From: a virus
IMG/VR virus record: IMGVR_UViG_3300011115_000874
Location: 1-64,000 of that record
Direction: 5' to 3' (one strand)
Length of the DNA stretch: 64,000 nucleotides
In this document: positions 49,318 to 55,972 of the stretch, piece by piece
Layout: each line of letters begins with the position of its first letter
How positions within the stretch are numbered: the first letter of the stretch is position 1
Made by a program: the position numbers and the translations under genes
Notes under the pieces: generated by a model
Databases searched by the model: none
Told to the model about the DNA's origin: nothing
What the model saw: only the letters and a program-made list of their open reading frames with translations

Positions 49318-49458
49318 TACTCAAGGCAGGAGTTGAACCTGCACGGGCTGCCATTATAATGACCACATCTTGTTCAGATGATTTTTTACCCACGTTGTTA
49401 TAACCATACGTTGCGTCTACCGTCGAACAGGGCCTCCTGATCCTTTCGCCACTTGAGT
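49318..49458 (-). ncRNA. 141-nt expanded tRNA-like RNA
   Basis: Acceptor ACTCAAG/CTTGAGT-A, Leu-type TGGCGAAA..GGTAGACGC with D-loop insert, T arm GCAGG-TTCAACT-CCTGC, branched variable region. Confidence 0.75.
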
Positions 49459-49511
49459 ATATGATGAATATAATATCTATATATTATAAAGCCAAACTCT
49501 TCTTGATAAAA

Positions 49512-51938: not shown

Positions 51939-52898
51939 TTAGACGATTTCTAGGATAACATCGTCACCTACCTCACGAATCACTGCCAAAGCATCCTGAG
52001 TCGCTACTACTATAACTGGGTAGTTATCATCATCATTCAACCCAACCATTTGCATTAAATCAGCTCCTTCAATTACTTCCTCAATTGAACCAGCTTGATC
52101 TACAACTGCGTCTAACTCAGTTACTTTAATTTTTGTAGTTGATTCATAAATACCATAATCACCTTTAGATAATGATAACCCAGATAAAGCTTGTTTAATA
52201 TCAAGTAACACTTGAGGTGGATCAGTAGATAGTATTAAGTGGTCTACCCCTATACCTTCCATCAAACTAGAATTACTTATATCCTCAGGGGTGAATGGAA
52301 CAATAATTCCTCCTACTTCACCTCCAATAAAATTACCTTGTTTTAAACCTATAGGAGCTAACTTACTAATCCATAAACTCCAACTACCTGGGTATAAGAT
52401 GTTATCTGAGAAAATTGTTTTATATGCTTCTAATAACATAGTATACATCTTAATACCCAATCCTTTACCGCGGTACTTCGGGCTAACGTACGTTAAATGT
52501 ATCTCTGCACCAGGTAGGCGATATGGTTTAGTACGCCCAGAATTCGCATTGATGTATATTTTCTCCACCTCTACTTGTCCTATAACATAATCATCTAAAG
52601 TAGTGCCTTTAGTATTTACTAAATATAAAGTACCACGGTAAGTTGAAGGTACTATAAACTCAAAGTCACCATCAGCTGTGATAACACTTTTTTTAATCAT
52701 ACGAGGATTAAATGTAGCATCAGGCTTTAGATTAAAGTCCTCAGAGTTAAACTTACCTCTACTAACAGTAAAGAACTCATCTTCAGGTATTTGAAAGTCT
52801 TCTAAGAATGCAATCAATACTTGTTCTAAAGTAATGTTATCATCTAGATCGCCACCACGTAGGTCTAATTCTTTAAGTAAGTCGGTTAATTTAATCAT
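51939..52898 (-). CDS. GNAT acetyltransferase with MIKL leader
   Basis: YVSPKYRGKGLGIKMY acetyl-CoA motif A; MIKLTDLLKE. Confidence 0.75.
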   Translation of the reverse strand: MIKLTDLLKELDLRGGDLDDNITLEQVLIAFLEDFQIPEDEFFTVSRGKFNSEDFNLKPDATFNPRMIKKSVITADGDFEFIVPSTYRGTLYLVNTKGTTLDDYVIGQVEVEKIYINANSGRTKPYRLPGAEIHLTYVSPKYRGKGLGIKMYTMLLEAYKTIFSDNILYPGSWSLWISKLAPIGLKQGNFIGGEVGGIIVPFTPEDISNSSLMEGIGVDHLILSTDPPQVLLDIKQALSGLSLSKGDYGIYESTTKIKVTELDAVVDQAGSIEEVIEGADLMQMVGLNDDDNYPVIVVATQDALAVIREVGDDVILEIV

Positions 52899-52900
52899 AA

Positions 52901-53950
52901 TTAAAAATTCTTGCTGATTTCATCAGCTAATTGAGGTGATTTAGGAATAGTACTATGTAATGCATCAATTGGTATTACTTTTGATGACGCGTTTGTAGTT
53001 GCTTTTTTAGCGTTTTCTTCTTCTGTTTTAATTTCTTCAGGTGTTTTAGCACCTTCTTTTTTCTTAGAAGCAATTAATGATATTACTTCAACACCATTTA
53101 AGGGTCCTAATTTTTTACCTCCTGGTAATTCTCGTCCTAACCCTGCTTTCTTTTTAGTATCGTTAGTAGCGAACCATTTATAATCTATTGGATCTCCTTC
53201 TTTAAAAGTTTTACCTTTCACAGTGGGTGCTTTATTACTATATCGTTTTTCAAAATTTGTAGTATCAAATTTATCTTCTATTATCCAAGGATCTGATTGT
53301 TTAATATTAGATGCTTGTTTCTTGATTCCACTATCAGATGGAGGGAAATTACTACCAACGTATTCTATATATTTTCCTTCATTACTCTTTTTAAAACCAT
53401 CTAACTCATCATCAGTATAAAAAGTTTTAATCTTTTGTTCCTCAGTTGGTGAAAGATCACCTCCAACTCTATTCTTTACAAATACACTTAATGGTTGAGC
53501 AATTGCTACTCTAGGTTTATTACCTGCTACCATGTTATCAATAAAACTATCTGTACTATCAGCTATACCACTATCTATAAAGAATAATTTGTTATTAAAT
53601 TTCTTAGAGTCTAATGCTTTTAACTCTTTAGCTAAATGCCAAGCCATAGCACCTCCAATAGAAAAACCACCTACTCCAAATTTACTTATGTTAGGATTAC
53701 TTTCAATCTCATTAGCAATGTCTTTAGCATATTTTCTTACATCTAATTCATTAGCAAAATCAGCAGTATAAACAGAAAAATTTTTACCTAAATTATTTGC
53801 TAATGTAGTAAAATCACTTCCACCTTGACCTCCTCCAGCTCCAGAACCAGGTAAGAGTATGAGTGTGTTAGCTCCACCTTTAGATAAAGCGTAGAGTTTA
53901 GGTTTGTTTTCCTCTATTACTTCTTTTAATAAGTGGGTTAGTTTTATCAT
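52901..53950 (-). CDS. Alpha/beta hydrolase (thioesterase-like) with MIKL leader
   Basis: LLPGSG oxyanion region, GFSIGG nucleophile elbow, FFIDS, C-terminal His (ALHSTI). Confidence 0.75.
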   Translation of the reverse strand: MIKLTHLLKEVIEENKPKLYALSKGGANTLILLPGSGAGGGQGGSDFTTLANNLGKNFSVYTADFANELDVRKYAKDIANEIESNPNISKFGVGGFSIGGAMAWHLAKELKALDSKKFNNKLFFIDSGIADSTDSFIDNMVAGNKPRVAIAQPLSVFVKNRVGGDLSPTEEQKIKTFYTDDELDGFKKSNEGKYIEYVGSNFPPSDSGIKKQASNIKQSDPWIIEDKFDTTNFEKRYSNKAPTVKGKTFKEGDPIDYKWFATNDTKKKAGLGRELPGGKKLGPLNGVEVISLIASKKKEGAKTPEEIKTEEENAKKATTNASSKVIPIDALHSTIPKSPQLADEISKNF

Positions 53951-54438: not shown

Positions 54439-54488
54439 ATGTTTTTATTTTAAATATAACATTGTTTAGCCTGAAAGCCAAACTTTAG

Positions 54489-54594
54489 TAGTCAGGACAG
54501 GAATCGAACCTGCTTCAGCTTTATCATTTTGAGTGCCATTAGCTGTTAATCTCAACCCTGGAAGGTGCCGCGCTTTCCAAAACGCCACCTGACT
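54489..54594 (-). ncRNA. 106-nt tRNA-like RNA with aberrant anticodon/variable region
   Basis: Acceptor AGTCAGG/CCTGACT-A, D arm GCGT-TTTGGAAA-GCGC, T arm GCAGG-TTCGATT-CCTGT. Confidence 0.75.
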
Positions 54595-54597
54595 ATA

Positions 54598-54681
54598 TTA
54601 GTTTATTAAGAATAGTAAAACGAATCCTCCTGTTCCAATAAACAATATCCAAAACAACGACCATTTTTCTTCATTTTTCAT
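54598..54681 (-). CDS. 27-aa single-TM peptide between tRNA-like RNAs
   Basis: MKNEEKWSLFWILFIGTGGFVLLFLIN; A-rich leader. Confidence 0.55.
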   Translation of the reverse strand: MKNEEKWSLFWILFIGTGGFVLLFLIN

Positions 54682-54697
54682 AACTTTTTAATTTTAG

Positions 54698-54773
54698 TAG
54701 TCAGGACAGGATTCGAACCTGTACTCGGTGATACATTCTAGATTGCTCATTCCGATGCCAACTTTACCTGACT
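54698..54773 (-). ncRNA. 76-nt tRNA-like RNA lacking a canonical D arm
   Basis: Same acceptor AGTCAGG/CCTGACT-A; T arm ACAGG-TTCGAAT-CCTGT; single long irregular central stem. Confidence 0.75.
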
Positions 54774-54778
54774 ATGTT

Positions 54779-54984
54779 ACTATTAGTTCTTTAGCATTCT
54801 ACTCCCAGCTTGAGGAATTGTATCTAACTTAGCCCTACTCACGCTGTGCGGGTACTAAAGTTAACTAATAGTTGCCTTTTTGAACGACGTCGAGAAGGCT
54901 AACTCTATCTCCTATACGATGAGAACAGTTACTTGAGCTTATGTCAGAGGCTTACTGTGTTTTACGATCCCCTCGCGAGCGGGG
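54779..54984 (-). ncRNA. Putative structured non-coding RNA
   Basis: ACTATTAGTT/AACTAATAGT and CTTTAG/CTAAAG closing stems plus four further hairpins; no ORF in track. Confidence 0.5.
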
Positions 54985-55269
54985 CTAATTTTTATTATCA
55001 AAAACTACTCCATCTTGGTTTTCCATATAGATTCGTTTTCCATCTTTATCATATGTGGTTTTGAACCAATATCCATTATCATCTTCATGATATGTCACTT
55101 TCTCTTCAATGTGATTATGTATTAATTTTAATATCCAAGCGTTTTCGTGCTCATATACACCACATACAATACCTGCTTCTTCTTCGGTGTCATAGTATTT
55201 TATAATACCATCTTTATCCTTCATAAAATCCATAGTTCTAAGATCTATGATTACGTATTTACCTTCCAT
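54985..55269 (-). CDS. Hypothetical protein
   Basis: 94 aa ORF. Confidence 0.6.
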   Translation of the reverse strand: MEGKYVIIDLRTMDFMKDKDGIIKYYDTEEEAGIVCGVYEHENAWILKLIHNHIEEKVTYHEDDNGYWFKTTYDKDGKRIYMENQDGVVFDNKN

Positions 55270-55782: not shown

Positions 55783-55972
55783 ATGTTTTTATTTTATATC
55801 TAAATATACGTATATACTTCCCGATAGCCAAACCTTTTGTTAAAGGAGTTCTTTTGAGTTTTACGATTGTTGGTTGAAGGGATTATTTCGGAATCGTAGT
55901 GTACTGTTGATAATATATATGTATATACAAATCGATTCGTAAAGATCGTTTACGATCTGAGAATTGATCCAC

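Follow-up and report, generated by a model that had tools for sequence, protein, structure and literature searches.

Anticodon-less leucine-tRNA-like RNAs with variable inserts in uncultured phages, candidate natural counterparts of the tRNA scaffold

Two small tRNA-like RNAs without an anticodon arm, which we call RNA1 and RNA2, lie at positions 54489-54773 of the DNA analyzed here, the first 64 kb (hereafter, the window) of a complete 160,798-bp record of an uncultured lake virus with direct terminal repeats (IMG/VR record IMGVR_UViG_3300011115_000874). The closest described RNAs are RNA1 and RNA2 of phage T5, together with rnaC and rnaD (the species 1 and 2 stable RNAs) of phage T4. T5 RNA1 and T5 RNA2 (NC_005859, T5s03 and T5s06; 125-144 nt) are annotated as ‘tRNA-like stable RNA with unknown functions’. 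Like the members of the family described below, they sit in the tRNA gene region of the phage, are co-oriented with the tRNAs and lack an anticodon arm. By eye, T5 RNA1 displays a leucine-type D arm (GCCGGAAUUGGUAGACGG) and a T arm, and T5 RNA2 carries the same T arm as the family (GCAGGUUCGAAUCCUGU) as well as an internal T-arm-like hairpin, CUCG-UUCGAUU-CGAG, that also appears in family inserts. The T5 RNAs differ in that their acceptor stems are different and partly mismatched, and in that their host is a proteobacterium; moreover, we know of no hypervariable, multi-copy repertoire for T5. The T4 RNAs, classed as late RNAs, are likewise small stable RNAs beside tRNA genes, and rnaC has a T arm (CCGGG-UUCGAAU-CCCGG) and an acceptor-like stem at its end. 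Both T4 RNAs are expressed, and their function is still unknown (PMC9697503). Unlike the family, they have no leucine-type D arm that is visible by eye, and no insert variability is known for them.

A man-made system for recombinant RNA expression provides a further precedent. In the ‘tRNA scaffold’ of Ponchon and Dardel, a cargo RNA reportedly takes the place of the anticodon arm, and the cell’s own tRNA enzymes process and stabilize it. By analogy, we propose the same working principle for the phage RNAs, except that these are natural, present in many copies and diversified. Specifically, we suggest, with a probability of roughly 0.6, that host tRNA enzymes turn RNA1, RNA2 and a third relative in the window, RNA3, into stable RNAs that carry variable functional inserts and may in addition be leucylated.

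RNA1 and RNA2 lie, like the genes around them, on the minus strand:

54594..54489, minus strand: RNA1, 106 nt, an anticodon-less tRNA-Leu-like RNA that has a 56-nt insert besides its D and T arms.
54773..54698, minus strand: RNA2, 76 nt, of the same family, without a D arm and with an insert closed by UCGG/CCGA.

Common to the two RNAs are a perfect 7-bp acceptor stem, AGUCAGG/CCUGACU, the discriminator A73 and a T arm of the consensus RCAGG-UUCGAWU-CCUGU (GCAGG-UUCGAUU-CCUGU in RNA1 and ACAGG-UUCGAAU-CCUGU in RNA2). The 24-nt 3’ half occurs twice in the window without a mismatch, where 100 shuffles predict 0.00 copies even if three mismatches are allowed. The Rfam tRNA model RF00005 matches RNA1 at 32.7 bits and RNA2 at 29.3 bits (cut-off 29). 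Both RNAs have the acceptor (7 bp and discriminator) and the 5-bp T stem with UUCRANY loop of a canonical tRNA, and the model clears its cut-off only by jumping 47 nt (RNA1) or about 37 nt (RNA2) through local ends at the place where the anticodon region would be expected. An anticodon arm, that is a 5-bp stem and a 7-nt loop with U33, is found in neither RNA by ARAGORN, by the Rfam alignment or by folding. Rather, RNA1 folds with a D arm (GCGU-UUUGGAA-AGCG) that is related to, but shorter than, the leucine-type D arm of the family, and with an insert hairpin closed by CAGCU/AGCUG. RNA2 retains a UUGG tract but no D stem and forms a single irregular stem closed by UCGG/CCGA. The initial annotation of this DNA, made from its letters alone, had described this anatomy: two copies with a common acceptor AGTCAGG/CCTGACT, discriminator A and T arm, of which the 106-nt copy has a D arm, no proper anticodon stem and a CAGCT/AGCTG-closed insert, and the 76-nt copy has no D arm and one long irregular stem. 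All of this holds at the positions that it gave. It also anticipated that ARAGORN would return undetermined or pseudo-tRNAs; on the window, the program calls four real tRNAs and neither RNA1 nor RNA2.

Scanning IMG/VR for the exact 24-nt 3’ half returned at least 157 copies on at least 120 uncultured viral contigs (4-288 kb), although requiring an exact match inflates the apparent invariance. Among the matches listed, there are up to six copies per locus (six within 3.4 kb in L010; L-numbers denote the loci of relatives that we compared with the window), and 129 of 135 elements are distinct; once the 5’ strand is located, elements measure 54-182 nt. On the bacterial side, 20 contigs in 185,579 species genomes display the same pattern. 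Every one of them comes from metagenome-assembled genomes (MAGs), and a plurality is labelled Chitinophagia, Flavobacterium, Saprospirales or other Bacteroidota. The 50,697 GenBank phage records contain no match to the window region itself and no family member, and a distant blastn search with the six-copy locus met only generic T-arm matches inside ordinary tRNA genes. Because the bacterial copies are confined to MAG contigs and no GenBank phage carries a member, the constant half derives neither from the end of a host tRNA nor from what is left of an attachment site; we rejected both origins, as the exact 3’ half is absent from isolate genomes. Full-text searches of the literature turned up no account of a phage RNA family that combines an invariant chassis with a variable insert. 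A 2023 survey of structured RNAs in IMG/VR names only a few tRNA-like candidates (PMC10690425), and a 2026 preprint on bacterial tRNA mimics deals with different families. The family is very large and appears to be new to the literature.

The constant part fits the top half of a leucine tRNA. In addition to the acceptor stem, the T arm and A73, the chassis constants are U8 (96%), G9 (90%), A14A15 (77%) and U48 (81%), and the family D arm is of the class II leucine type, GGYGRAAUWGGUAGACRC, with a Leu-like start in 121 of 165 members. R1, a covariance model built from 40 family members, scores the window’s tRNA-Leu(UAA) (51.5 bits) much like RNA1 (51.6 bits) and RNA2 (53.7 bits) and its tRNA-Cys far lower (23.8 bits), consistent with a leucine-tRNA origin of the chassis. 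On the T5 RNAs, R1 yields 24.8 bits for RNA2, partial and mis-registered, and no match for RNA1; T4 rnaC gives a weak partial match (17.8 bits, E 0.04). With matches this weak and partial, we consider the T4 and T5 stable RNAs as RNAs that work like the family and as no more than candidate members of it.

Bacterial leucyl-tRNA synthetase (LeuRS) is satisfied by A73 and a core of U8-A14, G18-U55 and G19-C56; the anticodon arm is dispensable, and removing the entire anticodon stem-loop lowers affinity only about 2.5-fold (PMC2377443). The family chassis keeps these features of minimal tRNA-Leu substrates, from which RNA2, without a D arm, differs. Leucylation is a concrete possibility because A73 and this tertiary core are retained.

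Because the search fixed the 3’ strand, we read selection from variation of the 5’ strand. The acceptor helix is perfect in 149 of 173 distinct copies. Among the 19 single-base variants of the 5’ strand, 16 are transitions that keep G-U pairing (A1G, C4U and A5G) and three are mismatched; of the 21 single changes that could occur, just three leave the pairing intact. A second search by the D arm alone, with the acceptor left free, yielded 102 distinct closed molecules. Ordinary tRNA-Leu account for about two dozen of these and RNAs of the AGUCAGG type for about 55, and about 20 more are anticodon-less RNAs whose acceptor stems are quite different yet fully complementary; all told, the anticodon-less relatives display 20 or more other acceptor stems. 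When 26 anticodon-less RNAs are aligned, 11 of the 12 acceptor and T pairs have changed on both sides, and register-shifted controls are 34-46% paired; the 26 were chosen for complementarity, so that the percentage paired is partly built in, but the diversity of compensated stems is not. The initial annotation preferred a selected tRNA-mimic scaffold to decay, under which the stems of homologues would mutate at random without covariation. We observed the opposite, and the helices, intact and covarying, together with an RNA1 that is better conserved than its neighboring genes (see below), support selection. Separately, we noted a subfamily of tRNA-like RNAs of 150-176 nt (L012 587-742, L037 5302-5469, L051 12256-12431 and L092 836-992) with U1-A72 stems (UGUCAGG, UGUAAGG, UGUAGAG and UGACAGG), discriminator G and a D region that begins UGGUGAAAG.

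The same observations bear on whether these RNAs could be decaying tRNA-Leu pseudogenes, or decoding tRNAs with an odd structure or introns. Rfam tRNA scores just over the threshold would suit such an origin, as would ARAGORN’s labelling of 31 of 180 family copies as tRNAs. However, the anticodons so assigned are scattered, and often implausible, on one identical acceptor stem, so that the labels look like artefacts of chance folds; RNA1 and RNA2 themselves go uncalled. Given in addition that the helices stay intact and covary, that conservation exceeds that of the coding neighbors, and that the inserts have neither splice-type boundaries nor a group I intron signal, we consider this origin highly improbable.

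Comparison of orthologues suggests that the insert is the working part of these RNAs. Thirteen orthologues of RNA1 were recovered, 95-100% identical to it. Departures from the window copy are confined to about six positions (19, 26, 46 and 64-66), and one of them, U65C in the T stem, replaces a G-U pair by a G-C pair. RNA1 is 95-100% identical to its counterparts in seven relatives, whereas the downstream gene of 79 amino acids (aa) is 75-93% and the upstream 94-aa gene 76-87% identical. A pseudoknot that we spotted by eye in RNA1, UUGAG/CUCAA across the CAGCU/AGCUG hairpin, is invariant in 13 orthologues and weakened in two, and we do not claim it. Across the family, inserts as a class show better folding than dinucleotide-shuffled sequences (mean z -0.67, p 2e-11), insert subfamilies recur in different contigs, and a second T-arm-like hairpin lies inside the insert in 9 of 165 members, against 0.2 expected. 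The median length from acceptor stem to T arm, that is D arm plus insert, is 71 nt, and the shortest whole element measures 54 nt.

This pattern is difficult to reconcile with a decoy function of the constant half, in which it would titrate a host or defence protein that binds the tRNA acceptor, T arm or elbow (3’-end-modifying toxins, LeuRS, EF-Tu and RNase P are candidate targets), and the inserts would be irrelevant or vary to evade recognition. Such a decoy would account for the extreme conservation of the chassis sequence, the retained LeuRS determinants and the several copies per genome, but it leaves unexplained why inserts are conserved among orthologues and why structured insert types recur. 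Moreover, the 3’ half occurs in no bacterial genome outside MAG contigs, so that it does not exactly mimic a known host tRNA, and RNA2 has lost its D arm. We regard a top-half decoy as distinctly unlikely.

RNA1 and RNA2 are part of a larger RNA cluster, with early-promoter copies on either side, and RNA3 lies some distance away. The further features, all on the minus strand, are:

55783..55832, minus strand: early-promoter copy, the nearest upstream of RNA2 and RNA1.
54993..54875, minus strand: conserved stretch of 119 nt, non-coding, that follows the stop codon of a 94-aa gene (ORF94) and heads the RNA cluster.
54872..54779, minus strand: pseudoknotted RNA (about 94 nt) with a closing helix that stops 5 nt short of the 5’ end of RNA2.
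54681..54598, minus strand: putative hydrophobic open reading frame (ORF) of 27 aa between RNA2 and RNA1, in the RNA2 cassette.
54439..54482, minus strand: early-promoter copy (TTTGGC-N17-TTATATT) that starts 7 nt past the RNA1 3’ end and is predicted to drive the next gene (79 aa).
49459..49496, minus strand: early-promoter copy with a -7-like box that ends 6 nt ahead of RNA3’s first base.
49458..49318, minus strand: RNA3, a 141-nt relative with acceptor ACUCAAG/CUUGAGU and T arm GCAGG-UUCAACU-CCUGC.

In nine copies of the pseudoknotted RNA, its 26 pairs are 98% paired, 14 of them are compensated, and both pseudoknot helices are 100% paired; it has no Rfam match. The motif occurs in the window and at 16 loci (including L009, L011, L050, L062, L108, L161, L171 and L194). 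The 5’ acceptor strand of an element follows it at 40-41 nt in 14 of these 17 sequences, and in three loci another element ends just 5’ of the pseudoknotted RNA. A 16-nt match to the pseudoknotted RNA at 104362 falls within an ordinary coding sequence and does not represent another copy. Cleavage of the abutting element by RNase P would define the 3’ end of the pseudoknotted RNA. The arrangement of this RNA and RNA2 is that of MALAT1-mascRNA and of the tRNA-microRNA RNAs of murine gammaherpesvirus 68, in which a tRNA-like fold stands beside a non-coding RNA and cleavage by RNase P or RNase Z sets the end of that RNA. Those systems are eukaryotic or herpesviral, and in the phage RNAs the tRNA-like part itself carries a conserved insert.

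The element ends are conserved: among 167 elements, 132 have U at position -1 and 164 have C at position 74, and C74 is also encoded by all four canonical tRNA genes in the window. Each of the 54 copies with a canonical tRNA at most 500 nt away is co-oriented with that tRNA (54/54), and elements run in the same direction as small ORFs, too. The complete 160.8-kb phage genome encodes neither a CCA-adding enzyme (PF01743) nor RtcB (PF01139), and any maturation must therefore be carried out by the host. At 10 or more distinct loci, including L219 6391, L030 1928, L099 5513, L010 2995 and L038 4298, we also observed a hairpin module, ...UGACRGCUCGGAAAGACGAGCAACAU (GCUCG-GAAAGA-CGAGC), 5-7 nt 5’ of AGUCAGG elements.

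One may ask whether the elements exist only to be cut. RNase P and 3’-end enzymes would then split polycistronic early transcripts at the elements, set the 3’ end of the pseudoknotted RNA, as mascRNA does for MALAT1, and give small ORFs short leaders, with the inserts as tolerated filler. Elements indeed lie about 5-20 nt from ORF stops and starts, and the fixed 40-41-nt spacing to the pseudoknotted-RNA motif (14/17 sequences), the second hairpin module 5-7 nt upstream in at least 10 loci and the conserved U at -1 and C74 all agree with cleavage. Yet filler should drift, and the RNA1 insert is nearly invariant beside diverging genes; insert subfamilies recur and covary; and the 54-nt minimal element demonstrates that the shape needs no long insert, while the median acceptor-to-T-arm length is still 71 nt. 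Punctuation as the sole purpose is unlikely in our judgment. Processing punctuation, a decoy for tRNA-targeting defences and a carrier for variable RNA cargo were the roles raised in the initial annotation. Of these, the carrier fits best because the inserts themselves are constrained, punctuation is probably true as a by-product, and the decoy is the least supported.

The RNA2 region itself provides an example of an insertion. In six relatives (L205, L194, L188, L216, L171 and L161), the pseudoknotted RNA directly adjoins RNA1, with one and the same junction (...AGUAACAU/AGUCAGGUGGCG). The window shares this junction but has RNA2 (AGUCAGGUAAAG) on its far side; 16 nt, the 27-aa ORF and 3 nt then separate RNA2 from RNA1. 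From the junction shared with these relatives, RNA2 and the 27-aa ORF constitute an insertion whose boundary coincides exactly with the chassis’s constant 5’ edge. In line with this, RNA2 is absent at this site in seven relatives, and the ORF is absent together with it; in L105, the pseudoknotted RNA is lost instead. Orthologues of RNA2 are present in four other contigs (L099, L219, L220 and L221) in unrelated contexts, usually within arrays of sister elements and beside small membrane-protein ORFs. The 27-aa ORF had been taken for the gene of a transmembrane peptide between the two copies; a hydrophobic ORF is indeed found there, but it is a putative gene only, as tblastn identified no homologue in any of the loci compared.

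Such precise boundaries are what one would expect if the constant ends were recombination sites at the DNA level, comparable to integron attC sites or the junctions of phage early-gene cassettes, with an RNA role that is secondary or absent. The reappearance of the same insert in unrelated contexts, and identical chassis ends in contigs of 4-288 kb with unrelated flanking genes, point in this direction as well. By contrast, a role confined to DNA would not explain why tolerated variants keep RNA pairing, why other acceptor stems covary, and why the nucleotides of the tRNA tertiary structure (U8, A14, G18G19, the T loop and U48) and C74 are retained. Nor would it explain the strict orientation relative to tRNA genes, and no recombinase is linked among the ORFs flanking the elements. 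We judge DNA boundaries alone to be quite improbable.

Between the early-promoter copies at 55832 and 54482, the minus strand holds no other. Given the copies at 55832 and just after RNA1, the former is the probable start of a transcript that would run through four small ORFs and end in an RNA-only tail, in which the 119-nt stretch, the pseudoknotted RNA, RNA2, the 27-aa ORF and RNA1 follow one another; this transcription unit is predicted from the positions of the promoters. The 119-nt stretch is 97-99% identical in seven relatives whose neighboring genes are 75-93% identical. It opens with a GC hairpin (GCCCCGCUCGCGAGGGGAU), contains stops in every sense frame and is not thermodynamically structured (z +1.1). 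Relatives lack the promoter copy at 54482, and their ATG lies 12-14 nt past RNA1, indicating that promoters, too, are gained and lost here. Between 48000 and 64000, the minus strand holds about 18 copies of the early-promoter cassette, TTTGGC-N13-14-GATGTTATATT...ATAATTAAAAA-ATG, one per small gene.

RNA3 contains a hairpin inserted in a leucine-type D loop, and its acceptor stem is a covarying variant of that of the family. Its insert is 93-96% identical in the L105 and L171 orthologues. With a promoter copy just before its first base, RNA3 would head its own unit together with tRNA-Cys and tRNA-Met.

Searches for known families and neighbors gave little else. Between 54300 and 55100, there is no Rfam match at E up to 10 beyond tRNA and chance-level ones, among which we dismissed a flavin mononucleotide (FMN) riboswitch match as chance (18 bits against a cut-off of 66). 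No curated Rfam model of bacterial Y RNA (YrlA), skipping-rope or other catalogued tRNA mimics matches this region. Transfer-messenger RNA (tmRNA; RF00023) has no match in the window, while the same search does find a tmRNA in L009; a tmRNA tRNA-like domain was rejected, as pair 3-70 is U-A in RNA1 and RNA2 and not the alanine identity pair G3-U70. The match in L009 (7609-8193, minus strand; 49 bits) lies directly against a match to a group I intron (98 bits), with tRNA-like elements alongside, and is possibly an intron-interrupted phage tmRNA. Pfam returned only DUF932, weak GNAT and weak hydrolase matches for ten neighbors of the window elements. Two proteins that start MIKLT(D/H)LLKE are encoded 1-2 kb from the RNA cluster (51939-52898 and 52901-53950, minus strand); weak matches point to GNAT for one of them and to an alpha/beta-hydrolase for the other, and we found no link between them and the RNAs.

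These analyses suggest the following model. The phage RNAs would be built on a leucine-tRNA ‘chassis’ (acceptor, D arm and elbow, T arm), in which a variable insert replaces the anticodon and variable arms. RNA2 and RNA1 would be transcribed early, at the 3’ end of the unit from the 55832 promoter, and RNA3 from its own promoter. Host RNase P would cut at A1, host 3’-end enzymes would trim to A73-C74, and the host CCA-adding enzyme would complete the end; the same cuts would free the upstream pseudoknotted RNA and nearby small ORFs. The tRNA-like L-shape would stabilize the product and display the insert as the phage-specific functional part, possibly a binding or decoy module, and the chassis, which keeps the known bacterial LeuRS determinants, may allow leucylation. 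Its identical ends could in turn serve as homology handles through which cassettes of insert and ORF are swapped between phages. That the cuts also release neighboring RNAs and ORFs, and that the invariant ends act as such handles, are plausible corollaries. A natural tRNA scaffold of this kind would explain the tRNA-type constraints, the conserved positions -1 and 74, the co-orientation with tRNAs and the constraint on inserts. Pure punctuation, a top-half decoy, DNA-only recombination sites and pseudogenes each leave at least one strong observation unexplained.

In addition to the two sampling effects mentioned above, several observations weigh against the carrier model. We found no function for any insert: the region between D arm and T arm differs throughout the family, with no 7-mer in more than 7 of 163 inserts and hence no common motif. 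No known family is present within inserts at Rfam gathering scores in 17 loci, and the longest complements to the own genome (12-13 nt) are typical of shuffles, without excess. Likewise, no protein is consistently linked, as the 250 ORFs beside elements fall into 200 clusters (median 71 aa), none of them consistently present; motif, Rfam, own-genome complementarity and linked-protein searches thus all failed to assign the inserts a function. RNA1 itself folds unexceptionally against shuffles (z -0.82), and, with stems that are invariant among orthologues, its insert structure is putative. RNA2, lacking a D arm, is missing part of the LeuRS and elbow determinants, making its leucylation less likely. 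Finally, the AGUCAGG chassis is nearly invariant in sequence, beyond what structure needs, which could reflect a DNA-level role or a sequence-specific partner.

If the RNAs are made and processed as the carrier model proposes, the RNA engineers’ ‘tRNA scaffold’ trick is very old in phages, which have used it on a large scale. Repertoires of small RNAs that standard annotation misses or mislabels as odd tRNAs would then exist in hundreds of uncultured phages; when phage tRNA arrays are annotated, Rfam tRNA matches of about 30-50 bits are not to be read as tRNAs. The retained LeuRS determinants lead to a testable and unusual hypothesis, namely charged RNAs that do not decode. We can also envisage, as a bolder and rather unlikely extension, that phages of aquatic Bacteroidota and of other hosts keep and exchange a library of RNA modules (aptamers, decoys or inhibitors directed against host defence or translation factors) on an invariant, leucylatable tRNA-Leu top half that recruits host maturation and possibly charging and EF-Tu, and that also serves as the homology handle for swapping cassettes. 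Such a library would amount to a ‘tRNA scaffold’ system that arose in nature and can evolve, and its RNAs would form a new class, aminoacylated but non-decoding. If the carrier model is true, the inserts would represent a large and so far untapped collection of RNA modules made by nature, probably directed at host takeover or counter-defence, and the family would offer a first comparative handle on the 50-year-old question of what T4 rnaC and rnaD and T5 RNA1 and RNA2 do.

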